Shown here one piece after another: positions 4,913 to 17,976 of a stretch of 64,000 nt of DNA. Below the pieces are notes generated by a model. It saw nothing but the letters and a program-made list of their open reading frames with translations. It ran no database searches and had not been told where the DNA came from. Each line of letters opens with the position of its first letter. Positions within the stretch are counted from its first letter, which is position 1. The position numbers and the translations under genes are program-made. Origin of the DNA: an uncultured Chloroflexia bacterium (GTDB lineage: Bacteria > Chloroflexota > Limnocylindria > Limnocylindrales > CSP1-4); contig CAWAHN010000016.1 in NCBI GenBank assembly GCA_963781845.1, positions 147,409 through 211,408 on the forward strand, in the 5' to 3' direction.

Positions 4913-6175
4913 GTGCGTGCCCCAGATCACACTCGTCGCGTCGTCGTCACCGGCCTCGGCGTCATCAGCCCGGTCGGCAACGACAAGGCGACCGCCTGGT
5001 CCAACCTCCTGGCCGGCGTGTCCGGGATCCGCGAGATCACCAAGTTCGACGCGTCCGCCTACGACCAGCGCGCCGGCGGCGAGGTCCGCGACTTCGTCGC
5101 GACGGACTGGATGGACGCCAAGGCGGCTCGCCGCAGCGAGGCATCGCTCCACTACGGGGTCGCGGCCGCCAAGCAGGCCGTGGCCGACGCCGGCTTCGAG
5201 ATCACCGACGAGAACCGGACCGAGGTCGGGGTGGTGTTCGGGACCGGGGCCGGCGGCCAGTCGCTGATGATCGAGAACGTGAACGTGCTGCGCGAACGCG
5301 GGCCGCGCGGCGTGGCCCCGACGTTCATCGCCAACGCCCTGCCCGACTCGGCCTCCGGGATGATCGCCATCGAGACCGGCGCCATCGGTCACAACCTGTG
5401 CATCGTGTCGGCCTGCTCCACCGGCACCCACTGCGTGGCCGAGGCCGCCGAGGCGATCCGCCGCGGCGATTGCATCGCGATCATCTCCGGCTCGACCGAG
5501 ATGCCCCTGATCGAGGTCGGGCACGCCGGCTTCGCCAACATGCGCGGGCTCGGCGACCCGCGCCCGGGCGAGCCGCTCGGGACCGTGTCGCGCCCGTTCG
5601 ATCTGACCAGGAACGGCTTCGTGCTCGGCGAGGGGGCGGGCTCGCTGTTCCTCGAGGACCTCGAGCTGGCCAAGGCCCGCGGCGCGCGGATCTACGCCGA
5701 GGTCGTCGGCTACGGCTCGGCCGCCGACGGCTGGGACATGATCCAACCCATCGAGGGCGGCGCCGGGTCCGCGCGAGCGATGAAGATGGCGCTCGATCGA
5801 CGAGGCGTGCCGGCCGACGAGGTCGACCTGATCAACCCCCACGGGACCTCCACGCCGCTCGGCGATCGGCGCGAGGCCGAGGCGATCTGGGCGGTCTTCG
5901 GGGACCACACCCGGGACATCGAGATCAGCGCCACGAAGTCGATGACCGGCCACATGATGGGCGCGGCCGGCGCGTTCGAGGCGTTCGCGACGGTCATGTC
6001 CGTGGCCGAGCAGACGGTCCCCGCGACGCTCAACTACCGGGACCCGGACCCCGACTGCGACCTCAACATCGCGACCGAGACCCACGGTCGAGCGATCCGC
6101 TACGCGCTCTCGAACAACATCGGCCTGGGCGGCCACAATGGCGCAGTGATCTTCCGCCGCTACGACGGGGACTGA
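4913..6175 (+). CDS. fabF: Beta-ketoacyl-ACP synthase II (KAS II), copy 1
   Basis: VVVTGLGVISPVGN, active-site Cys in SACSTGTHC, then HGTSTPLGD and GHMMGAAG. GTG start 20 nt after the fabD stop. Confidence 0.9.
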   Translation: MRAPDHTRRVVVTGLGVISPVGNDKATAWSNLLAGVSGIREITKFDASAYDQRAGGEVRDFVATDWMDAKAARRSEASLHYGVAAAKQAVADAGFEITDENRTEVGVVFGTGAGGQSLMIENVNVLRERGPRGVAPTFIANALPDSASGMIAIETGAIGHNLCIVSACSTGTHCVAEAAEAIRRGDCIAIISGSTEMPLIEVGHAGFANMRGLGDPRPGEPLGTVSRPFDLTRNGFVLGEGAGSLFLEDLELAKARGARIYAEVVGYGSAADGWDMIQPIEGGAGSARAMKMALDRRGVPADEVDLINPHGTSTPLGDRREAEAIWAVFGDHTRDIEISATKSMTGHMMGAAGAFEAFATVMSVAEQTVPATLNYRDPDPDCDLNIATETHGRAIRYALSNNIGLGGHNGAVIFRRYDGD

Positions 6176-6226
6176 CGTGACGCGCTTCGCCATGTCGCCG
6201 TCCCCCGACCGTCCCTGAGGTATCCC

Positions 6227-7492
6227 GTGCGAAGTCAGGATCCTGCGCGCCGCGCCGTCATCACCGGGCTGGGCGCGGTGATGCCCATCGGCAACGACTT
6301 CCCGACGTACTGGGCGAACCTGCGGGCGGGCGTCACCGGGACCCGCCGGATCCAGAGCTTCGACGCCTCGGCCTTCGAGGTGCAGATCGCCGCCGAGGTC
6401 CTCGATTTCGATCCCGCCTCGGCCATGGACCCCAAGATGGCGCGCCGGATGAGCCGGTTCATCGCCTTCGCCATGGCGGCCGGCAAGGAGGCCATCGCGG
6501 ATGCGGGCATCGACTTCGAGGCGATGGACGAGGACCAGCGCGACCGGGTCGGGGTCGTGGTCAACACGGGCGGCGGCGGGATCGAGCAGATCATCCACGG
6601 GACGCAGGTCCACGACCAGCGTGGCCCACGCTTCGTGAGCCCGTTCGCCGTGCCGGCGCTGTCGGGGTCGATGGCCGGCTGCATGCTGTCGATGGAGCAC
6701 GGCCTGACCGGTCCGGTGATGACCCAGGTCGCCGCCTGTGCCTCCTCGGTCATCGCGTTCCACGACGCGCTCCGGCTGATCCAGAGCGGCGACTGTGACG
6801 TGGTCCTGACCGGGGGTTCGGAGGCACCCATCTGGCCGATGGGCGTGGCCGCGCTCGGCAACATGGGCGCCCTGTCCAAGCGCAACGACGACCCCGGGCA
6901 TGCCTCGCGACCGTTCGATCGGGATCGCGACGGCTTCGTCCTGGGCGAAGGGGGTGGGGTCGTCGTGGTCGAGTCGCTCGAGCACGCCCGGCGGCGCGGC
7001 GCCACGCCGATCGCCGAGATCATCGGCGGGGCGCTGACCGCCGACGCGTTCCACATCAGCGCTCCGGAGCCGACCGGGCGCGGCCAGGTCAAGGCGATGA
7101 CCGGGGCCCTGCGCAACTCGGGGGTGGCGGTCGACGAGATCGACTACATCGTGGCCCACGGCACGTCGACCTCGCTCAACGACGTGACCGAGACGCGCGC
7201 GATCAAGGGCGCCTTCGGCGACCAGGCCCGACGCGTCCAGATCAGCTCACCCAAGTCGATGATCGGGCACCTGGTCGGCGCGGCCGGGATCGCCAGCGTG
7301 CTGGCGGCCGTCGGGGCGATCCGCGACGGCATCATCCCGCCGACGGCGAACCTCGAGAACCCCGACGACGAGTGCGACCTCGACTACGTCCCGCTCGTCG
7401 CCCGGCCGGCGAACGTCGAGACCGTGATGGTGAACGGGTTCGGCTTCGGCGGCCAGAACGCCGTGGCGATCTTCCGGCGGGTCGTCGACTGA
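6227..7492 (+). CDS. fabF: Beta-ketoacyl-ACP synthase II (KAS II), copy 2 (kasA/kasB-like tandem paralog)
   Basis: VITGLGAVMPIGN, AACASSVIAF, AHGTSTSLND, GHLVGAAG. Confidence 0.9.
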   Translation: MRSQDPARRAVITGLGAVMPIGNDFPTYWANLRAGVTGTRRIQSFDASAFEVQIAAEVLDFDPASAMDPKMARRMSRFIAFAMAAGKEAIADAGIDFEAMDEDQRDRVGVVVNTGGGGIEQIIHGTQVHDQRGPRFVSPFAVPALSGSMAGCMLSMEHGLTGPVMTQVAACASSVIAFHDALRLIQSGDCDVVLTGGSEAPIWPMGVAALGNMGALSKRNDDPGHASRPFDRDRDGFVLGEGGGVVVVESLEHARRRGATPIAEIIGGALTADAFHISAPEPTGRGQVKAMTGALRNSGVAVDEIDYIVAHGTSTSLNDVTETRAIKGAFGDQARRVQISSPKSMIGHLVGAAGIASVLAAVGAIRDGIIPPTANLENPDDECDLDYVPLVARPANVETVMVNGFGFGGQNAVAIFRRVVD

Positions 7493-7648: not shown

Positions 7649-8326
7649 ATGACCGCCACGAGCAGCGCCGCCGACCAGACCTTCACCGTCGTCATCGATG
7701 ACGACGAGGCTCTGATGGCCGAGGGACGGATCCGTCGGATCGACGCCGGCCCGACCTGGGCGAAGCACCGTGTCCGGATCGTGCTCGATGACGACCAGGA
7801 CACGAGCGGGCACGCGAGCGCTTCGGACCTGGCGGTCAGCCTCCGGTTCGAGGACGACGTCGAGGGCCACGCCCTCAGCCTCCACTTCCCGAACGCCCAG
7901 AAGGCCGACGAGTTCCGCAAGCGGCTCCTGGCCGGCGGCGTCGTGGCCGGCGCGCTCATCGTCGGTGTGACCGCGGCGCAGCTGTCGGCCGGCGCCCCGA
8001 CCACATCGGTGGCGGCTCCCGCTCCGATCGTCGCCCCGGCGGCCGGGCCGATCGCACAACCCCTGACCAATCCGCGGATCCCGGCCACGGATCTGGCGCC
8101 GATCGCGGCACCGGTCGCGGCGCCGATCGCCGAGCCGGCGACCAACCCGCGGATCCCGGCCGAGGACCTGTCACCCATCGTGGCTCCGGTCGCGGCGCCG
8201 ATCGCCGAGCCGGCGACCAACCCGCGGATCCCGGCCGAGGATCTCGCACCGTCGAGCTCGAAGGTGGCCCCGGTCACCCCGGCGACGGCACCCACGGACT
8301 CCAGCCAGTTCCGACGCGGCAAGTAG
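7649..8326 (+). CDS. Single-pass membrane protein: N-domain with two D-x-[ES]-G-H motifs, one TM helix, Pro/Ala-rich 25-aa repeats
   Basis: GGAGGA lies 8 nt upstream of the ATG. Motifs DDQDTSGH and EDDVEGH. TM helix LLAGGVVAGALIVGVTAAQL. About three copies of APIAEPATNPRIPAEDLxPIxAPVA. Confidence 0.7.
   Translation: MTATSSAADQTFTVVIDDDEALMAEGRIRRIDAGPTWAKHRVRIVLDDDQDTSGHASASDLAVSLRFEDDVEGHALSLHFPNAQKADEFRKRLLAGGVVAGALIVGVTAAQLSAGAPTTSVAAPAPIVAPAAGPIAQPLTNPRIPATDLAPIAAPVAAPIAEPATNPRIPAEDLSPIVAPVAAPIAEPATNPRIPAEDLAPSSSKVAPVTPATAPTDSSQFRRGK
8030..8245 (+). repeat. 75-bp in-frame tandem repeat, about 2.8 copies
   Basis: CCGCGGATCCCGGCC recurs at 8072, 8147 and 8222, a period of 75 bp (25 codons). 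Confidence 0.85.
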
Positions 8327-8410
8327 TCCTGCGGCCCCGGGGAGACCCGGGCGCCCTTCGCTCCCAGCGGCGGACCGTCCTTCGGGACGGTCCGTTCGCG
8401 TCCGGTCCGA

Positions 8411-10771
8411 TCAGGCGGTCGTCCCGCCGAGGGTCCGTTCGGGGCGCGCGTCGAAGCCGCGCAGACGAAGCGAGTTGAGCACGACGCTGACGGACGACAA
8501 CGCCATCGCCCCCGCTGCCATCGCCGGGTCGAGCGTGATCCCGAACGCGGGGTAGAGGACCCCCATGGCCACCGGGATCAGCAGCACGTTGTAGCCGAAC
8601 GCCCAGAACAGGTTCTCGCGGATGACACGCATGGTCTGCCGCGACAGGGCGATCGACGACCCGACGAGGCGCGGGTCGCCGCCGACCAGCGTGACGTCCG
8701 AGGCCTCGATGGCGACGTCCGCCCCGGTCCCGATCGCGATGCCCAGATCGGCCTGAGCGAGGGCCGGGGCGTCGTTGATCCCGTCCCCGACCATGGCGAC
8801 CCGGCGCCCGACGATCTGGAGCGTCTCGATCGCCTCGGCCTTGCCACCGGGAAGGACGTCGGCCAGAACGCGGTCCGGGCGGATGCCGACCTGGCGCGCG
8901 ACGGCCTCGGCCGTGGCTCGCGCGTCCCCGCTGACGATCCATGCGTCGATCCCGCGGACGGCCAGGGCTCGGACCGCGTCGGCCGCTTCGGGACGGACCG
9001 GGTCCGCGATGACGATCAGGCCGGCCGCGCGACCGTCGACGCCGACGAACACCGACGTCCGCCCGTCGGCTTCGGCGCGGCCCCGCGGGTCGGCCAGCTC
9101 CGCCAGGTCGACCCCGTGATCGCTCATCAGCCGGGCGCTCCCGATGAGCACCTTGTGCGACCCGCCGGAGGGCGACCCCACGTCGCCCTGGACCCCGTAC
9201 CCGACCGATGCCTCGAAGCCGACGACGGTGCGGAACCCGAGCTCGCGCTCCCGACCCGCCGACAGGATCGCCGCGCCGACCGGGTGCTCGCTGCCCTTCT
9301 CGAGCGACGCGGCCAGGTCGAGCACCTCCGACTCGTCGAAGCCGGTCGCCGCCACGATCGACGCCAGCGCGGGACGCCCGAGCGTCAGCGTCCCCGTCTT
9401 GTCGAAGACGACGGTGTCGATCCGGCCGGCGGACTCGAGCGCCTCGCCGCCCCGGATGAGGATCCCCGCCTCCGCCCCGCGACCCGTCCCGACCATGATC
9501 GCGGTCGGCGTCGCCAGGCCCATCGCGCACGGGCAGGCGATGACCACGACCGTCACGAACGCGGTGAGGGCGTGGGTCACGCTCGGAGCGGGCCCGAGCG
9601 CGAGCCAGACGACGAAGGCGAGCGCGCCGAGGCCGAGGACGAGCGGGACGAACACCTCGCTGATGCGGTCGACCATCCGCTGGATCGGGGCCTTGCTGCC
9701 CTGAGCACGTCGGACCATGTCGACGATCCGGGCCAACGCGGTGTCCGCACCGACCCGGGTCACGCGGAAGACGAACGTCCCGGTCCGGTTCAGCGTCGCG
9801 CCGATGACCTCGTCCCCGATGACCTTGTCGACCGGCAGCGCCTCTCCGGTCAGCATCGACTCATCGACCGCCGACGACCCGTCGACGACGATCCCGTCGA
9901 TCGGGACCTTCTCACCCGGTCGGACTCGGACCAGATCGCCCGGTCGGAGCTCGGCCAGCTCGACGTCGAGGTCTCCGTCGGGCCCCACGCGACGGGCCGT
10001 CTTCGCCCCGAGGCTCACCAGGCTGCGGATGGCCCCGGCGGTCCGGCTCTTCGCCCGTGCCTCCAGCCACCGGCCGAGCAGGACGAGACCGATGATGATC
10101 GTCGACGAGTCGAAGTAGGTCACCGGATCGAGTCCGGCCGCGACGAAGACCTGCGGGAAGAGCGTCACGAACACGCTGAAGGCCCACGCGGCGCTCGTCC
10201 CGGCGACCACGAGGCTGTCCATGTTCGCCGAGCCGTGCCGGAGCGCCCGCCAGGCCGCCCGGTAGAAGACGCCACCGGCCCAGACCTGGATGAACGTCGC
10301 CGGGAACAGGACGACCAGATTGATGGTCTCCATCGGCACGGCCGTCTGGGGCCAGAACGTCACGAGCATGATCCCGAGGGCGACGGCGATCGACACCCCG
10401 GAGCGGATGGCCAGGGCACGCTGGGTCCGCGCCCGCTCGAGATCGTCGGCGGCCATGGTCGCGTCGACCGCCTCGATCGCCGCGTCCGCCGGCGCCTCGT
10501 CGGTGCCCGCCTTGAGGTCGTAGCCGGCAGCCTCGATCGCCCCGACCAGGTCGGCGCGCGATGCGACGTCGGGCAGATAGCGGATCGTGGCGACCTCGGT
10601 CGCCAGGTTGACCGCCGCGACCTCGACGCCTGGCGTCCGAGTGAGGAACCGCTCGATCCGGTTGACGCACGATGCACAGGTCATCCCGGCGATCGGCAGG
10701 GCGATCTCGATCGAACCCGCGGATCGCTCCACGTCGGCGGTGGGTAGGGTGGTCGGAGTCGAGGTCGACAT
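8411..10771 (-). CDS. copA: Copper-translocating P1B-type ATPase
   Basis: N-terminal HMA motif [12 protein letters not shown], the CPC motif in [18 protein letters not shown] and [10 protein letters not shown]. 786 aa. Confidence 0.92.
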
Positions 10772-10786
10772 ACTCCCAGGGAGTAT
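10770..10786. promoter_or_regulatory. Palindromic operator ATACTCCC-A-GGGAGTAT abutting the copA start codon
   Basis: Perfect 8-1-8 inverted repeat. The minus strand reads TATACTCCCTGGGAGTATG, a -10-like TATACT 10 nt before the ATG. Near-identical site at 51312-51328. Confidence 0.55.
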
Positions 10787-10881
10787 AGCATGAGTGGTCC
10801 GCGCCCCAGCCTCGTCGCGGTACGCTTCGCGGGCGATCGCCGGCCCATGCCGGGCGATCGGTCATCGAAGCCGGAGGCCGG

Positions 10882-11481
10882 ATGATCGGGATCGGCGCGG
10901 TCGAGGCGCCATGGGGGCCGGTGCACGTCGCCGCGGATGCGGACGGCGTGATCGCCCTCGAGGTCCTGACCACGCCCGCTGCGTTCGAAGCGTCGGTGCG
11001 GCGTCGCCGGCCCGGTGAGCCGATCGCCGAGGATGCCCGGCACGCGCTCGATCCGCCGGTCCGGCGTCAGCTCGTCGCCGCCGTCGACGCCGTGGAGGCG
11101 TATCTCGACGGACAGCCGGACCGTCTCGCGGCCCTGCGCTATGCGCTTCACGGTCTGACCGACTGGGACCGCCTCGTCCTCGGCGGCGTGCGAGCCATCC
11201 CGTGCGGCGAGGTGACCAGCTACGGACGGCTGGCCGAGCGGATCGGCCGACGAGGCAGCGCCCGCGCGGTCGGCGGCGCCGTCGGCCGGAACCCGATCGG
11301 TCTGGTCGTGCCCTGCCACCGGGTCATCGCCGGCGACGGCTCGCTCGGCGGCTACGGCGGGTCGTGGCTCGGCGACCGCGACGCCCTGCTGGCGATCAAG
11401 CGCACGCTGCTGACCCTCGAAGGCGCCTGGACCGGCACGGGGACTGTCGGGTGGACGACGTTCGGAGCGCGGCACGGGTGA
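10882..11481 (+). CDS. ogt: Methylated-DNA-protein-cysteine methyltransferase
   Basis: Active-site motif PCHRVI, plus SYGRLAERIGRRGSARAVGGAVGRNPIGLVVPCHRV. Confidence 0.85.
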   Translation: MIGIGAVEAPWGPVHVAADADGVIALEVLTTPAAFEASVRRRRPGEPIAEDARHALDPPVRRQLVAAVDAVEAYLDGQPDRLAALRYALHGLTDWDRLVLGGVRAIPCGEVTSYGRLAERIGRRGSARAVGGAVGRNPIGLVVPCHRVIAGDGSLGGYGGSWLGDRDALLAIKRTLLTLEGAWTGTGTVGWTTFGARHG

Positions 11482-11556
11482 CTTCCCGACCACGGCCCGG
11501 GGCGCCTAGACTCGGACGTGCGACGGTGCGGTCGCGAGCCCGACGAGGAGACCCCG

Positions 11557-11742
11557 ATGACCGAACCCAAGGATCAGCCGGCGAACCCGACCGACGAGGA
11601 CGACACCTCCGGTCACTCGTTCGGCGACGAATACGCGCGGCAGCATGCCAATCAGAAGGCCCGCGAAGCCGACACCTGGGCGATGAAGCAAGCGCTCCGC
11701 AAGCAGGTCAAGAGCCCGCTCGACCGACTCCGCGGGCGCTGA
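11557..11742 (+). CDS. Small acidic protein with one DEDDTSGH motif and a KSP element (61 aa)
   Basis: GAGGAG lies 6 nt upstream of ATG 11557. MTEPKDQPANPTDEDDTSGHSFGDEYARQHANQKAREAD..RKQVKSPLDRLRGR. The tail aligns with the tail of the 16404-17021 protein. Confidence 0.6.
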   Translation: MTEPKDQPANPTDEDDTSGHSFGDEYARQHANQKAREADTWAMKQALRKQVKSPLDRLRGR

Positions 11743-11758
11743 CCCGGCAGCGGTCCCG

Positions 11759-13471
11759 GTGAGCGTCCTTCACGCCTACCGGGGCCTCCTCTCGAACCGT
11801 CCGCTGGTCCGCCTCCTCGGCGGGGAGTTCGTCAGCTCGATCGGCGACTGGCTGTACCTCGTCGCCCTGCTGATCGTCGTCTACGACGTCAGCGCCGACC
11901 CGATCATCCTCGGGATCGTCGGCGCTGCCCGGATCCTGCCCTACGTCCTTCTGTCGATCCCGGCCGGGATCATCGCCGATCGCTTCGAGCGTCGGCTCGT
12001 CCTGCTCGTCACCGACGTCGCGCGCGGGGTGATCATGGTCGCGATGGCCTGGCTCGTCGCGATCGACGGTCCGCTCCTGGCGATCGTCGGATTGGCCGTC
12101 CTCGCGACCTGCTTCTCGTGCTTCTTCGGCCCGACGATCGGCGCCTACCTGCCGACCCTGGTCCGCGACGAGAACGAGCTCGGGCCGGCGAACAGCGCCT
12201 GGTCGACGCTCGACAATCTCGCGTTCGTGATCGGGCCGGCTGTCGCCGGGCTGCTGATCGCCGCGAGCGGCCTGACCCTCGCCTTCGTGCTCAACGCGAT
12301 CTCGTTCGCGATCGTCGCCGTCGTCCTGTGGCGCCTGCCACGCGAGTACGGGAAGGGTGCCGAGCCGGCGGCAGCTGACCTGAGCCGGACGGAGGCCGTC
12401 GGGGCCGGGACCGATGACGCCACCGTGGCCGCGTCCCCCGGTGCACCGTCGACGGGACCGGGCACGGGCACGGTCGCGCGGGGGTCGCTCGTCCCGCTGG
12501 CCGGGCTCGCGCTCATCGACACGGTCGCCGGCTTCGTGTTCGGCGGCCTCGGCGTACTGACCGTCATCATCGCCGTCGACCAGCTCGGTGCGAGCGAGGC
12601 GGCGACCGGCTACCTCAATGCCGCGATCGGGATCGGCGGCATCCTCGGGGCGATCGGCTCGTCGGCATTCGTCGTCCGCCCCGCGCTCCGCGTGCCGCTG
12701 GTCATCGGCTCGGTCGGCCTGGCCGTCGGCGTCGGCGCGCTCGGTCTGTCGTCGAGTCTCGGGCCCGCGCTCATCGCGATGGCCATCGCCTCGGCGGGGA
12801 GCCTCCTGACCGAGGTGGTCAGCACGACCATCTTCCAGCGGACGATCCCCGATGTGATCCGGGGCCGAGCGCTCGGGACCATCGCGACGATCTCGACGCT
12901 GGCCTACGCGGCCGGCTCGCTCGTCCTGCCGGTCGCCGCGGATGTCGTCGGGATCAGCGAGGTCCTGCTCGTGTCGGGCGGCCTGGTCGTGGTCGGGTCG
13001 CTCGTCGCCGTCGCGTTGATCGGCTCTGCCGGCGACCACGGTCCGTCGGCCGAGCTGACGACCGCCGCCGAGCGCGTCGCCATCCTCCCGGTCTTCGCCG
13101 GCGTGCCCGCCTCGCGCCTGGCCCAGGCGTTCGCGCGTGCGATCGAGCTCGACGTCGCGACCGGCACCGTCGTCATCCGCCAGGGTGATCCGGCCGATCG
13201 GTTCTACGTCATCCTCGCCGGCGCATTCGACGTCGACCGAGCGGAGACGGCCGATACGGCCCCGGTCAGGCTGCGGACGATGGGCCCGGACGAGGTCTTC
13301 GGCGAGATCGGGCTCCTGACCGGGTCGGCGCGGACGGCGACCGTCACGGCGACGAGCGACGGCCGCCTGCTGGCCCTCGACGCTCCGGTATTCCTCGAGC
13401 TCGTCGCGTCGGCGGCGGAGGTCGGACCGCGATTGCTCGCCATCCATCGCGGCGGAGCGGCCACCGGCTGA
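11759..13471 (+). CDS. MFS transporter fused to a C-terminal cyclic-nucleotide-binding domain
   Basis: About 410 aa of multi-TM MFS-like sequence. This is followed by RFYVILAGAFDV..GPDEVFGEIGLLTGSARTATVTA, the canonical cNMP-binding beta-barrel signature. Confidence 0.8.
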   Translation: MSVLHAYRGLLSNRPLVRLLGGEFVSSIGDWLYLVALLIVVYDVSADPIILGIVGAARILPYVLLSIPAGIIADRFERRLVLLVTDVARGVIMVAMAWLVAIDGPLLAIVGLAVLATCFSCFFGPTIGAYLPTLVRDENELGPANSAWSTLDNLAFVIGPAVAGLLIAASGLTLAFVLNAISFAIVAVVLWRLPREYGKGAEPAAADLSRTEAVGAGTDDATVAASPGAPSTGPGTGTVARGSLVPLAGLALIDTVAGFVFGGLGVLTVIIAVDQLGASEAATGYLNAAIGIGGILGAIGSSAFVVRPALRVPLVIGSVGLAVGVGALGLSSSLGPALIAMAIASAGSLLTEVVSTTIFQRTIPDVIRGRALGTIATISTLAYAAGSLVLPVAADVVGISEVLLVSGGLVVVGSLVAVALIGSAGDHGPSAELTTAAERVAILPVFAGVPASRLAQAFARAIELDVATGTVVIRQGDPADRFYVILAGAFDVDRAETADTAPVRLRTMGPDEVFGEIGLLTGSARTATVTATSDGRLLALDAPVFLELVASAAEVGPRLLAIHRGGAATG

Positions 13472-13618
13472 TCCGGGTGTCGCCCAGGCGACGCTCGGAC
13501 CGTCGCACGTCGGTCTGCCGCCGCGTCGGCGCGCGGTGTACGGTTGCCGACGGGTGGACAGGACCGCGGTCCATCCGATCTCGGTCGACCGAGGCCGCGC
13601 GGCCGGCAGGAGGCTTCG

Positions 13619-13834
13619 ATGCCAGAGCACGACGACACCAAGGCACCCGGGATGATGTCCCGGATCGACGACGACGACGTCGAGGGCCACGGCGGGCACG
13701 TCAAGTCGCCCCGAGCGACCGAAGACGACGTCGAGGGCCACGGCGGGCACGTCAAGTCGCCCCGAGCGACCGAGGACGACGACGTCGAGGGACATTTCGG
13801 ACAGCTCAAGAGCCCGTCCAGCCGCGGCGAGTAG
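13619..13834 (+). CDS. Small repeat protein, three DVEGH units (71 aa)
   Basis: GGCAGGAGG lies upstream of ATG 13619. MPEHDDTKAPGMMSRIDDDDVEGHGGHVKSPRATEDDVEGHGGHVKSPRATEDDDVEGHFGQLKSPSSRGE. Confidence 0.7.
   Translation: MPEHDDTKAPGMMSRIDDDDVEGHGGHVKSPRATEDDVEGHGGHVKSPRATEDDDVEGHFGQLKSPSSRGE
13670..13795 (+). repeat. 51-bp in-frame tandem repeat (2 copies plus a 54-bp variant), paralogous to the 16.7-17.0 kb array
   Basis: GACGTCGAGGGCCAC occurs at 13676 and 13727, and a variant at 13781. The unit is roughly 90% identical by eye to the reverse complement of the 51-bp unit at 16701. Confidence 0.8.
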
Positions 13835-13874
13835 TCGGCCCTGACCCTCGCCGCCGCCACGCCCGCGGGAACCG

Positions 13875-14702
13875 TCAGCCGCCCGGCCGCGCCCCGTTGG
13901 AGACGGCCGCCAGGATCGCCTTGACCTCGAACGGCGTCGCCCCCGGATGCTTCGCGCGGATGAGCGCGGCGAGGCCCGCGACGTGCGGGGCGGCGAAGCT
14001 GTTGCCGGTCGCGACCATCCGCGAGCCGTCCTTCCAGGCGACGTCCACGTCGACGCCGTACGCCCCGAACTCCACCGGCGGGCTCGGGTTGTAGAACCAC
14101 GTCCAGCGGTCCGGGATGTCGTGGGCCGCCACGGAGATGACCGACGCGAAGAGCGAGGGATAGCTCGGCCCCGGGACGTTGTTGGCGGCACTCACCAGGA
14201 CCACGTTCGCGAAGTACGCCTCGTCGACGATCTCGTGGAACACGGCGAACATGGCGTCGCTCTTCGACGACAGGCTGAGATTGATGACCGACGCCCCCTG
14301 GGCGACGGCCCACTCGAGTCCGGCCGCGAAGATCGAGCCCTTGCCCCGGTTGTCGGGTCCGAGGACGCGCACGGAGATGATGTCGGCACCCGGTGCCAGC
14401 CCGTGGATGATCCCCGCGCAGGCGGTGCCGTGACCGACGACGTCGATCGCCTCGGGATCGTCCACGACGACCGGATCCTCCTCGCCGGGCTCGACCCGGA
14501 CGCTTCGGATGAGCTTGCCCCCGACCGCCGGGTGGTCGCGCTCGACGCCGGAGTCGACGATGGCGACGGTCACGCCGGTCCCGTCGACGCCGCCGAAGGC
14601 CGTCTCGCGATCGATCCCCGCGATCGGCACGGACCGGTCGAGGGCGCCGCGCCGCTCCCCGATGAAGGGCTCGCTCCAGGCGGGCAGGTATGGATCGGTC
14701 AA
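13875..14702 (-). CDS. S8-family subtilisin-like serine peptidase with no obvious signal peptide
   Basis: Catalytic triad contexts AIVDSGV, GHGTACAG and GNSFAAPHVAG. The start is proposed at TTG 14702, which overlaps the GAF gene stop as TTGA. The ORF stays open up to 14861. Confidence 0.8.
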   Translation of the reverse strand: MTDPYLPAWSEPFIGERRGALDRSVPIAGIDRETAFGGVDGTGVTVAIVDSGVERDHPAVGGKLIRSVRVEPGEEDPVVVDDPEAIDVVGHGTACAGIIHGLAPGADIISVRVLGPDNRGKGSIFAAGLEWAVAQGASVINLSLSSKSDAMFAVFHEIVDEAYFANVVLVSAANNVPGPSYPSLFASVISVAAHDIPDRWTWFYNPSPPVEFGAYGVDVDVAWKDGSRMVATGNSFAAPHVAGLAALIRAKHPGATPFEVKAILAAVSNGARPGG

Positions 14703-15547
14703 CGGTCGTCGAGGCGCGGATCCGGGGCCATCCGCCCGCGTCGGCGCGACCGGACGTCGCGCTCGGCCTGGCGAGCCAGGGCGGCCAACAGGTCGGTCAC
14801 CAGCTCGAGCCGATCCGGGTCGACGCCGCGGATCCGGGCGACCTGCTCGACGAGCGTCCACAGATGCGAATCGTCGTCGCGGCCGAGCCCATCGGTCGCC
14901 GCCAGGACGAGCTCGTCGAGCGCGGCCTCCGTGACGGGATCCGTGCGATCGTCGTCGGACGTCGACGCCAGCTCGGCGAGCGTCGCGCGGAGCAGCCCGG
15001 CCAGGTCGCGCTCCACCCGGCTGGCCCGGATCGCGACGGCCGCCTGCCGGGCGAAGACGCCGGCCAGCTCGATGTCCCGCAGCGAGAACGCCGCCTGGCT
15101 GCGCTTGTCGAGGACCTCGAGGACGCCGATCGTGCCGTGGTCGTCGACCAGGGGGACGGCGACGATCGAGCGCGGCACGTACGCCGTCTTCTCGGCGACC
15201 GTCCGCCCGAAGCGCGGATCGCTCGCGACGTCCGACAGGGCGAGCGCCTGGCCCGACGTGTAGACGTAGCCGGCGATCCCCTGGTCGGGCCGGATCGCGA
15301 CCCCGATGACGCCCTGGCCCTGCTGGCCCGCCGCGACCTCGAAGACCAGCCGATCGGTGGCGGCGTCGTACAGCGCGATCGAGGCGGCCTCGGCCTCGAA
15401 CAGGGCCACGGTCGCCTCCACGACGGAACGGAGCACGGCCCGGGCGGAGCCGATCTCCAGGCGACGAGCGACATCGCCCCGGAGGGCGATGCGCTGCAGG
15501 AGTCCGACGGCCTCCGGACCGAGGGTCGGGGGCCGATCGTCAGTCAT
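14699..15547 (-). CDS. GAF-domain protein with a C-terminal helical extension
   Basis: ASIALYDAATDRLVFEVAAGQQG..GIAGYVYTSGQALALSDVASDPRF..SIVAVPLVDDHGTIGVLEVLDK. Confidence 0.75.
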   Translation of the reverse strand: MTDDRPPTLGPEAVGLLQRIALRGDVARRLEIGSARAVLRSVVEATVALFEAEAASIALYDAATDRLVFEVAAGQQGQGVIGVAIRPDQGIAGYVYTSGQALALSDVASDPRFGRTVAEKTAYVPRSIVAVPLVDDHGTIGVLEVLDKRSQAAFSLRDIELAGVFARQAAVAIRASRVERDLAGLLRATLAELASTSDDDRTDPVTEAALDELVLAATDGLGRDDDSHLWTLVEQVARIRGVDPDRLELVTDLLAALARQAERDVRSRRRGRMAPDPRLDDR

Positions 15548-15553
15548 CGCCGG

Positions 15554-16252
15554 TCATCGTTCGGCGGCGCGAGCGAGGCGATCCAGGTCGGGGATGATGA
15601 GCGCGTCGCGCTCGAGTCGCACCAGGTCCTGGGCGGTCATGTCGGCGAGCAGTCGATTGACCGTCTGACGTGTCCCGCCGATCATCGCGGCGAGGTCGCT
15701 CTGGGTGAATGGCCAATCGAGCCGGATGTCCTTCGTGACGCCGGGTTGCGCCTCGCGCGCGAGCCGGACGATGCGACTGGCGAGCCGCCCGGGCAGATCG
15801 AGGAAGTGCAGCTCCTCGACGTGGCCGGTCAACCGACGGAGCTCGGTCACCAGGCCGGCGAACAGGGCCTTGCGGAGCTGCGGCTGGGTCTCGACGAGGT
15901 CCTCGAAGCGATCGCGACGAAGGACGAGGGCCTCGGTCGACTCGATCGCGACCGCGGTCGCCGAGTGCGGGGCCCCATCGAGCAGGGCGAGCTCGCCGAA
16001 GAAGTCGCCGCGCATCAGGGTCGCGATGATCGCACCCTCCTCGCCCTCGGGTGATGGCAGGACGATCTTGACCGAGCCGGATTCGATGATGTAGAGCGAG
16101 TCGCCCGGGTCGCCCTGATGGAAGATGATCTCGTTCTTGCGGTAGCGCCGGACCCGGAGCGAGGAGGCGCACAGCTCGAGCGTCCCGTCGTCGACCTTGG
16201 CGAACAGCGCGCAGCGGCGCAGCGCCTCGACCGCGAACTCCGACTCGCTCAT
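15554..16252 (-). CDS. Crp/Fnr-family transcriptional regulator (cNMP-binding domain plus HTH)
   Basis: IIFHQGDPGDSLYIIESGSVKI..GDFFGELALLDGAPHSATAVA, with the C-terminal HTH QSDLAAMIGGTRQTVNRLL. GGAGGA lies upstream of ATG 16252. The ORF is open to 16288. Confidence 0.85.
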   Translation of the reverse strand: MSESEFAVEALRRCALFAKVDDGTLELCASSLRVRRYRKNEIIFHQGDPGDSLYIIESGSVKIVLPSPEGEEGAIIATLMRGDFFGELALLDGAPHSATAVAIESTEALVLRRDRFEDLVETQPQLRKALFAGLVTELRRLTGHVEELHFLDLPGRLASRIVRLAREAQPGVTKDIRLDWPFTQSDLAAMIGGTRQTVNRLLADMTAQDLVRLERDALIIPDLDRLARAAER

Positions 16253-16377
16253 CGATCCTCCGTTGACCGGTCCGTCGACACGTGGCACATCGTAGTCGGC
16301 ACCCGGCGGGCAGTCGAGGCGGGAATCAACGAGGCGGCGCCGGTCGGCGTCGCCTCGTCTTCGAGCCTGGTCCGGGT

Positions 16378-16395
16378 GGGCGCCTAGGGCGCCCC
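16378..16395 (-). terminator. GC hairpin GGGCGCC-tag-GGCGCCC just after the stop of the repeat gene
   Basis: 7-bp stem beginning 9 nt past stop codon 16404-16406. A second imperfect hairpin lies at 16331-16360 (ACGAGGCG..CGCCTCGT). Neither has a strong U-tract. Confidence 0.3.
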
Positions 16396-16403
16396 GACCA
16401 CGA

Positions 16404-17021
16404 TCACTTCTTGTGCGGTCGGCTCGCCTCGCGGGCCTCGTGGTTGCGCAGGTTGCGCTGGATGTCCTGCTCCCGCGCCCGAGCCAGGTGCTGGCTCAGC
16501 ACGGGGTTGCCGTACATGTGGCCTTCGGCATCGTCCTCGCCGTCCTCGATCGCGCGGCGCTTCCGATGTCCCTCGACATCCTCCTCGCCATCGTCGATCG
16601 CGCGGCGCTTCCGATGTCCCTCGACATCCTCCTCGCCATCGTCGATCGCGCGGCGCTTCCGATGTCCCTCGACGTCGTCGTCTTCGGTCGCTCGGGGCGA
16701 CTTGGTGTGCCCGCCGTGGCCTTCGACGTCGTCGTCGGTCGCTCGCGGCGACTTGGTGTGCCCGCCGTGGCCTTCGACGTCGTCGTCGGTCGCTCGCGGC
16801 GACTTGGTGTGCCCGCCGTGGCCTTCGACGTCGTCGTCGGTCGCTCGCGGCGACTTGGTGTGCCCGCCGTGGCCTTCGACGTCGTCGTCGGTCGCTCGCG
16901 GCGACTTGGTGTGCCCGCCGTGGCCTTCGACGTCGTCGTCGGTCGCTCGCGGCGACTTGGTGTGCCCGCCGTGGCCTTCGACGTCGTCGTCGGTCGCTCG
17001 CGGGGTCTGCTTGTTCGACAT
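16404..17021 (-). CDS. Acidic His-rich tandem-repeat protein with 10 D-[VA]-E-G-H units (205 aa)
   Basis: AGGAGA lies 7 nt upstream of ATG 17021. Six copies of TDDDVEGHGGHTKSPRA, three of DVEGHRKRRAIDDGEE, then DDAEGHMYGNPVLSQHLARAREQDIQRNLRNHEAREASRPHKK. Confidence 0.75.
   Translation of the reverse strand: MSNKQTPRATDDDVEGHGGHTKSPRATDDDVEGHGGHTKSPRATDDDVEGHGGHTKSPRATDDDVEGHGGHTKSPRATDDDVEGHGGHTKSPRATDDDVEGHGGHTKSPRATEDDDVEGHRKRRAIDDGEEDVEGHRKRRAIDDGEEDVEGHRKRRAIEDGEDDAEGHMYGNPVLSQHLARAREQDIQRNLRNHEAREASRPHKK
16541..16690 (-). repeat. 48-bp in-frame tandem repeat, about 3 copies
   Basis: GATCGCGCGGCGCTTCCGATGTCCCTCGAC occurs at 16547, 16595 and 16643. Confidence 0.85.
16684..17003 (-). repeat. 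51-bp in-frame tandem repeat, about 6 copies
   Basis: CTTGGTGTGCCCGCCGTGGCC occurs at 16701, 16752, 16803, 16854, 16905 and 16956. Five consecutive units read as identical. Confidence 0.9.
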
Positions 17022-17159
17022 CGTGATCTCCTATCGGCTGCCCGGACTTCGGCTCTTGTCATCGAGCCAGGCCATCTTGCGCTGGCGGCCGACCGACCGT
17101 CCAGCGTGTCGTGTGACGCTGAGAGTGTCGGACAGGCGACGTTCCTCGAGCGGGCGAGC

Positions 17160-17816
17160 TCAGCCGCGGGTGACCGGACGCATCGGGTAGACCCCGACCA
17201 CGATCGGCGCGACGGGATCGAGCTGGAGCTCGTAGCCGACCTCTCCGCCGCGGAGCAGCTCGCCGAGCATGAGGCCCTCGCGTTCCGGCAGCCCGACGAA
17301 GATCCGGCCGGGCGGGACGTCGATCCCGGTCACGTCGTCATCCTCAGCCGCGATCAGGAACCGGCGGCGGATCTCATGCATCGGGATGTACGCACGACTC
17401 TTGATGAAGCGCCGGAGCTGGGCGGTCGTGCACGTGCCGTGACGTTCGCCGGAGGGTGGCGGGGAACCCGCCCCGATCGGGGTCGTCGTCCGGGCGCCCG
17501 CGGGCGGCATGGACGCCGCCGGCGTCGGGGAGGTCGCATCGACGCGCGGCTCGGGAGCCGGGACCGCGACCGGCGTGGCGACCTGGGGGGTCGACGCAGC
17601 CGGATCCAGGTGAGCGTCGACGTCACCCCCGCCGACCTGCGCACGCGCCGAGGCCTGGTCGACGTCGAGCGTCGATCGGCCCGGATCGACATCCGCCGCA
17701 GCCGCGGTCGAGCTCGGTGCGGCGGGCCGCGCGACCCGCGTGGGATCGTGGGGGCGTGGTCCGCCACGGTGGTCCGGATGCCGCGGGCGGCCGCCACGGC
17801 CGGTCCGGCGGCTCAC
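17160..17816 (-). CDS. Hypothetical protein: low-complexity N-part, conserved-looking C-domain
   Basis: C-terminal about 100 aa: CTTAQLRRFIKSRAYIPMHEIRRRFLIAAEDDDVTGIDVPPGRIFVGLPEREGLMLGELLRGGEVGYELQLDPVAPIVVGVYPM. Alternative start at ATG 17510. Confidence 0.4.
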   Translation of the reverse strand: MSRRTGRGGRPRHPDHRGGPRPHDPTRVARPAAPSSTAAAADVDPGRSTLDVDQASARAQVGGGDVDAHLDPAASTPQVATPVAVPAPEPRVDATSPTPAASMPPAGARTTTPIGAGSPPPSGERHGTCTTAQLRRFIKSRAYIPMHEIRRRFLIAAEDDDVTGIDVPPGRIFVGLPEREGLMLGELLRGGEVGYELQLDPVAPIVVGVYPMRPVTRG

Positions 17817-17976
17817 GAGTGGGCCATCCGGGAGCGTCGCCGGGCGTGGCGAGTCAGGGTCGGCTGGGTTCCGTCATCGCCGAAGCGACGGTCGAAGGTG
17901 ACAGGCATCGGTCCGAACGCGTAGGGCTGGGCGCGCTCGTCTGGCGCGTCGGTCAGTCGATGATACCGCGCCCGGC

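Follow-up and report, generated by a model that had tools for sequence, protein, structure and literature searches.

A conserved neighbourhood of DVEGH-motif proteins, a GAF protein and a minimal subtilase in Chloroflexota and Actinomycetota

The stretch of DNA analysed here (the window) comprises 64,000 nucleotides of contig CAWAHN010000016.1 from an uncultured Chloroflexia bacterium and has a G+C content of about 72%. It encodes small proteins that carry the pentapeptide DVEGH, often in tandem, and these proteins form a conserved neighbourhood with a GAF protein and an S8 subtilase without signal peptide in both Chloroflexota and Actinomycetota. Judged by their sequences, the DVEGH proteins constitute an undescribed family of small, predicted disordered proteins. 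Their co-occurrence with the genes for the subtilase (S8), the GAF protein, a Crp-like regulator and a transporter of the major facilitator superfamily fused to a cyclic nucleotide-binding domain (MFS-CNB) in two phyla is strongly positive, which gives good support to a functional connection of these proteins with the protease and sensor genes. What this link consists of is a more tentative matter. We propose, at somewhat less than even probability, a proteolytic module linked to cyclic nucleotides (cNMP), in which a GAF-gated subtilase would cut the DVEGH proteins and free peptides or basic tails.

A scan of all six frames of the window places 16 copies of the motif D-[VTA]-[ES]-G-H within four open reading frames (ORFs), as the preliminary description had counted: two in 7649-8326, one in 11557-11742, three in 13619-13834 and ten in 16404-17021. 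Outside these ORFs just three motif-like matches occur in the 64 kb. All four ORFs start with ATG preceded by GGAG or GGAGG, which agrees with the good ribosome-binding sites and starts first ascribed to them, and their G+C content at the three codon positions (GC1, GC2 and GC3) resembles that of the flanking bona fide genes. The preliminary description could not place the motif in any named family, and this holds: scans of 14 family members gave no Pfam or NCBIfam match, the motif proteins match no PADLOC model, and a literature search rendered no paper giving the motif in this context and nothing relevant on combinations of multicore precursors, subtilisin and MFS or of intracellular subtilisin, GAF and cAMP. 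A profile of the tail described below has no relative among solved structures.

The longest of the four proteins (16404-17021, identified by ORF, motif scan and homologues) has 205 amino acids. Its gene lies on the minus strand, a correction to the earlier description, and heads the minus-strand run DVEGH-Crp-GAF-S8. The protein is built up by six 17-residue units TKSPRATDDDVEGHGGH, three 16-residue units RKRRAIDDGEEDVEGH and a final DDAEGH, directly followed by a conserved basic helical tail MYGNPVLSQHLARAREQDIQRNLRNHEAREASRPHKK. In the DNA these units appear as a 51-nt repeat of 6.4 copies (99% identical) and a 48-nt repeat of 3.1 copies (96%). The protein has 104 homologues among 5.8 billion proteins, all named hypothetical and originating from soil metagenomes and metagenome-assembled genomes of Chloroflexota/Limnocylindrales. 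The protein of the window itself has no entry in the assembly index. When 1.84 billion cluster representatives were searched with a profile, 515 family members were obtained at E ≤1e-3 and 111 at E ≤1e-10, mostly 58-240 amino acids long.

The family is modular. An acidic run ends in a near-invariant D-[VTA]-E-G-H, with Val more common than Thr and Thr more common than Ala, and is followed by a spacer that is small or hydrophobic at its start and turns basic, and optionally by a conserved tail. The commonest repeat period is 15-16 amino acids. The tails include a helical basic type (NPxLARELARAxERDIQR...RPHKK), a short type (FGxLKSPSSRGE) and an actinobacterial type (VQPPRDLDIER), and repeat-only members without a tail also exist. 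In the tail-bearing members the last motif is always 2-4 residues from the tail, and the Asp, Gly and His are invariant in the tail alignment. Every codon of the motif varies synonymously over 385 distinct contexts, so that it is the peptide, and no DNA element, that is under selection. The motif proteins are strongly hydrophilic and Gly-rich with an acidic isoelectric point and alternating acidic and basic blocks, and apart from the 7649 type they have neither signal peptide nor transmembrane segment. The 205-residue protein, for instance, has a grand average of hydropathy (GRAVY) of -1.73, 12.7% Gly and an isoelectric point of 5.5, and the corresponding values for the 13619 protein are GRAVY -1.34 and 14.1% Gly.

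The way in which these proteins diverge is best seen in locus L208, where the GAF protein is 96% identical to that of the window. Its long motif protein (6641-7141) has 166 amino acids compared with 205, with N-terminus and tail identical to those of the window but with eight copies of a different 16-residue unit, KVPKATDDDVEGHGGH, that has a KVPKAT spacer. Spacers thus turn over and homogenise while motif and tail are held. The sequence K-S-P, proposed at first as a second shared element after the motif, is not conserved, as the KVPKAT spacers of this relative demonstrate; it is kept only in the short tail, FGxLKSPSSRGE, at the C-terminus of proteins of the 13619 type.

Three contigs that bear homologues share the gene order long DVEGH, Crp, GAF, S8, small DVEGH, MFS-CNB and small DVEGH, and one of them (L002) has this cassette in a wholly different outer context. 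A fourth and a fifth locus with the same arrangement were also found. A degenerate DNA pattern for tandem motifs was then scanned over 185,579 species genomes, one per GTDB species, and matched at least 120 arbitrarily placed blocks of 8 kb; the pattern is biased to tandem motifs beginning with GAC. The block counts that follow refer to the matches listed. There, 94 blocks belong to Actinomycetota (56) or Chloroflexota (38) and contain a genuine repeat ORF, and a few chance matches come from Lentzea, Streptomyces and Prevotella. An S8 orthologue with 46-93% identity over about 270 amino acids is present in the same block in 69 of the 94 (Actinomycetota 40/56, Chloroflexota 29/38). The GAF gene is equally frequent (69/94; 39/56 and 30/38), followed by the Crp-like gene (55/94; 26/56 and 29/38) and the MFS-CNB gene (40/94; 19/56 and 21/38). 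By our estimate, the chance of finding a given single-copy gene of a 3-8 Mb genome in a random 8-kb block is about 0.1-0.3%. The median gap between motif gene and S8 gene is 731 nt, which corresponds to one GAF gene.

The carriers listed are soil and Antarctic-soil bacteria. Among the Actinomycetota they include Geodermatophilus, Nocardioides, Marmoricola, Naasia, Jatrophihabitans, Frankiaceae, Gaiellaceae, Solirubrobacterales, Thermoleophilaceae and Acidimicrobiia, and among the Chloroflexota they include Limnocylindria and others. In Chloroflexota the motif gene is upstream of and on the same strand as GAF-S8 or Crp-GAF-S8, with a small convergent motif gene downstream, whereas in Actinomycetota it is mostly found directly downstream of S8. 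The gene order differs between the phyla yet the adjacency is kept, so the linkage has survived rearrangement.

The reverse comparison started from 80 metagenome loci fetched by S8 similarity alone. All are 56-80% identical and hence Chloroflexota-like, and 56 of the 80 contain motif ORFs. Most of the 24 loci without a strict motif ORF are on contigs shorter than about 2.5 kb, and seven are longer, six of them 3.0-9.6 kb in length. Two of these seven carry variants next to the S8 orthologue: in L203 (4502-5095) there are ten copies of EPEVEGH, with Glu for Asp, and in L193 (2003-2482) there are D[TV]SGH units.

The three other motif proteins of the window differ in size and build. The short DVEGH protein (13619-13834, plus strand) has 71 amino acids, three motifs and the conserved end EGHFGQLKSPSSRGE; its gene lies downstream of the MFS gene and converges on the S8 gene, and the same tail type occurs in orthologues of L001, L003, L016, L022, L024, L046, L106, L120 and L208. 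The single-motif protein (11557-11742, plus strand) has 61 amino acids with an acidic N-terminus, DEDDTSGH and a basic helical tail, and its gene ends 17 nt upstream of the MFS gene. Its orthologue in L208 is called as a gene of 61 amino acids. Relatives consisting of a single motif and a tail adjoin the MFS gene in L038, L040 and L074, and in L039 such a relative is 1.6 kb past S8 and about 2.9 kb from an MFS fragment. The alignment suggested earlier between the tails of the 11557 and 16404 proteins is real but weak, and other loci hold better relatives of the 11557 type. The fourth protein (7649-8326, plus strand) is a more distant motif carrier. It is a membrane protein of 225 amino acids, 3 kb from the cluster, with DTSGH and DDVEGHALSLHFP in a cytoplasmic N-domain, one transmembrane helix and then a Pro/Ala-rich repeat region. 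Its extracytoplasmic part is encoded by a 75-nt tandem repeat of 2.5 copies (8065-8251, 88%) giving PIAEPATNPRIPAEDLAP units. The protein has 27 close homologues, and several other loci also have this type close to their S8 cluster. In an AlphaFold2 model with a predicted local distance difference test (pLDDT) score of 63, DVEGH is placed at the hairpin turn between strands 60-67 and 73-79; a Foldseek search with the modelled N-domain gave no match with E <0.3.

Pfam and NCBIfam scans confirm the identities first given to the neighbours, that is, the MFS-cNMP fusion, Crp, GAF and S8 without signal peptide. The subtilase (13875-14702, minus strand) is a minimal Peptidase_S8 protein of 275 amino acids beginning MTDPYLPAWSEPF, and its start is most likely the TTG at 14702 and not position 14861. 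In alignment A2, with 18 S8 orthologues from both phyla and 270-280 amino acids in length, Asp50, His91, Ser235 and the oxyanion Asn175 are invariant. Signal peptide and classical prodomain are both absent, and the protease is predicted to be catalytically intact and cytoplasmic. An N-terminal segment, LPAWSEPF, is conserved in these orthologues with an invariant Trp. The closest solved structures are plain subtilisins (subtilisin BPN'). Scores against specialised S8 models are all below the cut-offs: 31.2 bits against a cut-off of 421 for PatA/PatG (TIGR03895), 126.7 against 278.75 for mycosin (TIGR03921) and 107.2 against 165 for QhpE (NF049966). The called neighbours include no ESX genes, and no radical-SAM or Qhp subunit genes are nearby. 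The loop around the catalytic His91, DVVGHGT (D-x-x-G-H-G-T in the orthologues), resembles the motif DVEGHG, which is possibly a coincidence.

The GAF protein (14699-15547, minus strand; Pfam, AlphaFold2 and Foldseek) has 282 amino acids, with a GAF core at residues 35-175 approximately and a helical C-terminal extension. The core is modelled with a pLDDT of about 85-90 and the extension with a pLDDT below 50. The best sequence matches in the PDB are the HD-GYP GAF 4mcw, GAF-B of PDE10A and PDE2A, and CyaB2, and the top Foldseek matches are 4mcw, 5w10 (the Lcd1 GAF with cAMP), 1mc0, 2zmf and 1ykd, with E-values of 1e-13 to 1e-9. Thus the modelled core is closest, in sequence and in predicted fold, to cAMP/cGMP-binding GAFs and to the HD-GYP GAF. 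The likeness to the GAFs of PDE2A, PDE10A, CyaB2 and Lcd1 includes the NKFDE motif, which reads DK..F..D.E in the window (Asn to Asp) and is largely kept in the Chloroflexota clade. Unlike those domains, the GAF of the module stands alone with its helical extension, is coupled to a protease and not to a cyclase or phosphodiesterase, and has an invariant Pro in the segment TGYVP.

Without exception (132 of 132 loci), the GAF and S8 genes share one strand. For about 80 of 125 loci, the distance from the GAF stop to the PAWS codons of S8 is 2-20 nt, which means that the S8 start overlaps or adjoins this stop; in the window the TTG at 14702 overlaps it (cgTTGAcc). In Nocardioides tweenelious CN2-186 (L098, 6796-7998), Pfam GAF and Peptidase_S8 are found in one stop-free frame, apparently a natural fusion. 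The helical extension of GAF is missing from this frame, whose N-terminus is cut off because the block stops within the GAF domain, and an assembly error is possible. Same strand, overlap of start and stop, and one shared frame together are read as strong evidence that the GAF and S8 proteins act as a unit.

Several genes of the neighbourhood are related to cyclic nucleotides. The transporter (11759-13471, plus strand; Pfam/NCBIfam) is of the MFS_3 type, EntS-like, with a C-terminal cNMP-binding domain whose cassette is canonical in the window (GE...RTA) and reads R[TS]A in 60 of 63 orthologues. The Crp/FNR-family regulator (15554-16288, minus strand) scores above the Pfam cut-offs for cNMP_binding (102.9 bits) and HTH_Crp_2 (59.6 bits). 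Other conserved neighbours were sought by targeted tblastn and Pfam, and a large gene combining a zinc ribbon (DZR), a class III adenylate/guanylate cyclase and AAA_16 adjoins the cassette both in Chloroflexota (L002, 15365-18994) and in Marmoricola (L112, 1-4887). With tblastn, about 38 loci from both phyla have this cyclase type next to the cassette; none of the type was found in the 64-kb window. S8 is accompanied by one or more cNMP-related genes in 64 of 75 loci anchored by the pattern and in 25 of 26 loci anchored by S8 and at least 6 kb long.

Upstream of the long DVEGH gene a promoter- or operator-like element is found at 17073-17131 on the minus strand. It consists of CGACAC (17130-17125), GTCAC (17117-17113), the -35-like CTGGAC (17104-17099) and the -10-like CAAGAT (17079-17074), and is unique in the window. 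In alignment A3, which comprises the regions upstream of 11 orthologous long motif genes, the element reads CGACAC-N7/8-GTCRC, then CTGGAC and, 17-19 nt further on, CAnnAT, with the GTC, CTGG.C and CA..AT columns invariant. It has the appearance of a conserved promoter that includes a candidate operator, and the co-encoded Crp-like regulator may be the protein that binds it.

In the proposed proteolytic module, the GAF protein would form a complex with the subtilase and gate it on a small ligand, probably cAMP or cGMP. DVEGH would be the determinant by which S8 recognises and cuts dedicated disordered substrates. Cutting of the multi-copy proteins would give many acidic/basic peptides of 15-17 residues, and cutting of the tail-bearing members would free a basic helical C-terminal peptide from an acidic pro-region. 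The motif is regarded as the functional unit because the L208 relative swaps the spacer and keeps motif, N-terminus and tail, and because the junction between motif and tail is fixed at 2-4 residues. More speculatively, the products might exit through the cNMP-gated MFS_3 exporter, and the Crp-like regulator might drive the conserved promoter of the long precursor. Taken to its full extent, the proposal would describe a hitherto unrecognised second-messenger output pathway of Terrabacteria with its own cyclase, transcription factor and nucleotide-gated exporter, where a cNMP-sensing GAF protein switches on a subtilase whose only clients are DVEGH-tagged proteins, yielding exported signals or intracellular effectors as well as basic tails. 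This extended version is rather unlikely.

Several observations weigh against such a module. Everything in it beyond the gene linkage is inferred from sequence, and the position of cleavage cannot be deduced from sequence. The residues of the S1 pocket, read from A2 against subtilisin BPN' numbering, are uncharged, and nothing predicts a specificity for Asp, Glu or His. In the module GAFs NKFDE is only partly kept, less so in Actinomycetota, and the TG[FY]xT of the phosphodiesterase type is an invariant TGYVP in those examined, with Pro for the second phosphate-contacting Thr. The ligand of the GAF protein may therefore not be a cyclic nucleotide. The Crp-like cassette of the window is PHSAT, with His for the canonical phosphate-contacting Arg; its orthologues have RSA or RTA in 60 cases and HSA in 32, and the sister clades keep Arg. 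No Crp box of the E. coli type (TGTGA-N6-TCACA, at most two mismatches) is present in the cluster, and over the whole window there are 5 matches where 8.65 are expected. The MFS gene is found in only 40 of the 94 blocks, and it would be unusual for an MFS protein to move highly charged 15-17-mers. In the modelled 7649 protein the motif appears as a hairpin turn within a folded domain, where it could have a structural or binding function just as well as be a site of cleavage. Finally, orphan motif genes exist far from any S8 gene, and five S8 clusters on contigs of at least 3 kb are without a recognisable motif gene, for example L187. The L187 cluster (S8 at 6001-6792) is a reduced one, with genes for methylated-DNA-protein-cysteine methyltransferase (MGMT) and a Cu-ATPase on one side and an M24 peptidase on the other; neither a match to Crp or MFS nor a motif gene was found in it, and only about 1.2 kb of uncharacterised sequence precedes S8.

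The composition of the motif proteins is also what would be expected of protective or storage polyampholytes, disordered and hydrophilin-like, that serve in dormancy or desiccation. The GAF-S8 pair would then dispose of them on a cNMP signal of recovery, with the motif allowing rapid cutting at many sites, comparable to the small acid-soluble proteins (SASPs) and their germination protease. Both repeat proteins are extreme in hydrophilicity and Gly (GRAVY -1.3 to -1.7, Gly 13-14%), and the 16404 and 13619 proteins agree with the hydrophilin criterion of more than 6% Gly and high hydrophilicity, which defines a compositional class and not a homology family. Acidic and basic blocks alternate, the spacers drift freely in sequence while keeping their composition, and protease, substrates and GAF protein are all without signal peptide. 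Hosts from soil and Antarctic soil, Geodermatophilus included, suit such a role. The conserved tails, the fixed motif junction, the membrane-anchored member and the small single-motif genes beside the exporter are left unexplained, however. The 14 members scanned match no LEA (late embryogenesis abundant), dehydrin or SASP family in Pfam or NCBIfam, and short proteins with few copies per genome are a poor fit to bulk protectants. Storage with disposal is rated unlikely. The preliminary description had considered disordered stress proteins under cNMP control; composition and the cNMP gene content speak for this, but it leaves the dedicated protease unexplained.

Binding of metal is an improbable alternative. 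Here the Asp/Glu/His motif would chelate Cu, Ni, Zn or Ca, possibly in a DxDxEG-type loop, and the proteins would be buffers or chaperones with exporter and protease providing for turnover. The invariance of Asp, Glu and His and the turn formed by Gly would suit this, as would the extra His in many spacers (GGH, HKHHHGR), a Cu-type P1B-ATPase that adjoins the cluster in the window and its clade, a cupredoxin in L001, and the fact that MFS_3 transporters include siderophore exporters (NCBIfam EntS similarity). The adjacency of the ATPase is limited to the window's own clade, however, and is missing at other motif loci; the earlier idea of Cu/Ni/Zn buffering gains nothing from what is synteny within one clade. 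Furthermore, what is conserved beside the motif genes is a protease and a GAF sensor, not metal transporters or metalloregulators, many family members have no Cys or His clusters, and by our comparison with the EF-hand consensus, positions 8 and 12 are missing from the motif. A low probability is likewise given to the possibility that the motif proteins regulate the protease as pseudo-substrate inhibitors, adaptors or decoys titrating GAF-S8, or, in a variant, that the GAF or the Crp-like sensor binds the motif as its ligand. The tight linkage, a repeat number that varies between close relatives in the manner of a stoichiometry, and the hairpin turn of a folded domain in the 7649 model agree with regulation, and intracellular subtilisins of Bacillus are restrained by peptide segments across the active site (PMC6220982). 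The resemblance of the motif to the S8 loop DVVGHGT would point the same way, but is treated here as a curiosity and not as evidence. For inhibition neither up to 13 tandem copies nor a set of paralogues that differ in their tails would be needed, the cluster has no other candidate substrate linked to it, and Pfam and NCBIfam scans give no similarity to known subtilisin inhibitors. That the small ORFs are unexpressed, or that their linkage is inherited synteny without function, is already disfavoured and very improbable. High-GC genomes are rich in spurious ORFs, and the frame antisense to 16404-17021 is open with equal GC3, but conservation at the protein level with synonymous codon variation, conserved tails, ribosome-binding site and promoter, and a linkage kept across gene orders, two phyla and unrelated outer contexts all speak against it.

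Among known systems, the proposed module is nearest in its workings to those in which a precursor, a protease and an exporter go together and to cytoplasmic subtilases controlled by a partner, but it belongs to none of them. Multi-core precursors cut by subtilases are known in the cyanobactins (PatE with PatA/PatG) and in the fungal dikaritins, where the precursors are cut by Kex2. The similarities are a short conserved, recognition-like element repeated between variable segments, an arrangement resembling that of cores and recognition sequences, an S8 protease encoded alongside, a transporter in the cluster and, in the DVEGH proteins, spacers that diverge fast between relatives. On the other hand, the DVEGH units are identical within one protein, there is no N-terminal leader, the C-terminal tails are conserved, and the known systems have no counterpart of the GAF partner or the cNMP genes. 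The scan of the four motif ORFs and six neighbours (7649-17816, the CopA-like gene at 8411-10771 excluded) with Pfam and NCBIfam gave only MFS-CNB, S8, GAF, Crp, MGMT and three unassigned proteins, with no YcaO-type heterocyclase, oxidase, prenyltransferase or other tailoring domain, and related loci are the same. The specific classification as cyanobactin-like put forward at the outset is not supported: S8 scores 31 bits against 421, no modifying enzyme is encoded by those genes of the cluster that were scanned, and a leader is missing from the precursors.

The RGSGR pentapeptide of heterocyst-forming cyanobacteria (PatS, HetN and PatX) is similar in that a conserved pentapeptide is found inside otherwise unrelated small proteins and a larger membrane-associated protein. 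This is an analogy only: motif and phyla differ, PatS has no tandem copies, and no subtilase or GAF gene is linked. SASPs are small, abundant, hydrophilic proteins with a short motif that is cleaved by a dedicated cytoplasmic protease, GPR, on leaving dormancy, and a short conserved motif with one dedicated cytoplasmic protease would be the analogous feature here. GPR, however, is not a subtilase, SASPs bind DNA and fold on it, there is no relation in sequence, and the present hosts are not endospore formers.

The intracellular subtilisins (ISPs) of Bacillus and Planococcus have an inhibitory N-terminal LIPY/F motif, [LVI]-[IFLV]-P-[YFH] (PMC6220982). The S8 protein resembles them as a cytoplasmic subtilase of about 30 kDa with an intact triad, without signal peptide or classical prodomain, and with a short conserved N-terminal segment of hydrophobic residue, Pro and aromatic residue (here LPAW). 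The LIPY/F motif itself is unmatched, as the orthologues have xLPAWS with Ala at position 4 and an invariant Trp at position 5, and ISPs are general proteases of the stationary phase without dedicated substrate genes or a GAF partner. In Myxococcus xanthus the cytoplasmic subtilisin-like protease PopC is held in check by a complex with PopD, is released through a nucleotide second messenger and cuts one dedicated substrate to give a signal (PMC6434023). By its description, this system is similar in its partner-controlled cytoplasmic subtilase, its second-messenger link and its dedicated substrate; PopC, in contrast, is secreted and acts on a surface protein, PopD is degraded in a (p)ppGpp-dependent manner, and there are no repeat substrates.

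Membership of the cyanobactin, mycosin and QhpE groups was rejected on the scores below cut-off and membership of the ISPs on the unmatched motif. Peptides of the Phr/Rap type were also rejected: the N-termini of the motif proteins are hydrophilic without a Sec signal, and no TPR/Rap gene is found in the cluster. For known anti-phage defence there is no PADLOC system, only generic similarity of the cNMP and subtilase domains and none for the GAF or motif proteins.

As far as the libraries show, the domain families are known and the logic is like that of known protease/precursor modules, while the substrate family, the coupling of GAF to subtilase and the cNMP gene set are undescribed. So far, bacterial cAMP/cGMP signalling is known to act chiefly by way of transcription factors, acetyltransferases, cyclases and phosphodiesterases. 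If the proposed module is true, a proteolytic branch would be added to it, and unannotated small disordered proteins of soil Actinomycetota and Chloroflexota would obtain a function. Should the motif be a cleavage determinant, GAF-S8 could be developed into a site-specific protease that is switched by a ligand and recognises a short, portable motif. The module is carried by cultured strains of Nocardioides (N. tweenelious), Marmoricola (sp. RAF53) and Geodermatophilus (G. amargosae), which offers a concrete entry point. A tandem-motif gene is present in Nocardioides sp. Root240 as well (L073), but its 8-kb block yielded neither S8 nor GAF.

The cluster is flanked by tandem ketoacyl-ACP synthase genes (4913-6175 and 6227-7492), a CopA-like P1B-type ATPase gene (8411-10771, by sequence motifs and by Pfam-annotated orthologues in L003 and L208) and an MGMT gene (10882-11481). 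The synteny of this flank is confined to the window's own clade.

A 127-nt inverted repeat of 93% identity, between 13669-13795 and 16662-16788, corresponds to repeat units of the 13619 and 16404 genes, which are therefore not independent occurrences. This suggests gene conversion between the two paralogues. The repeat flanks the 2.9-kb S8-GAF-Crp block and could in principle permit its inversion. Antisense to the whole of the long motif gene, an open frame of 503 amino acids (16413-17924, plus strand) with equal GC3 is a typical shadow ORF of high-GC DNA that an annotator could mis-call.

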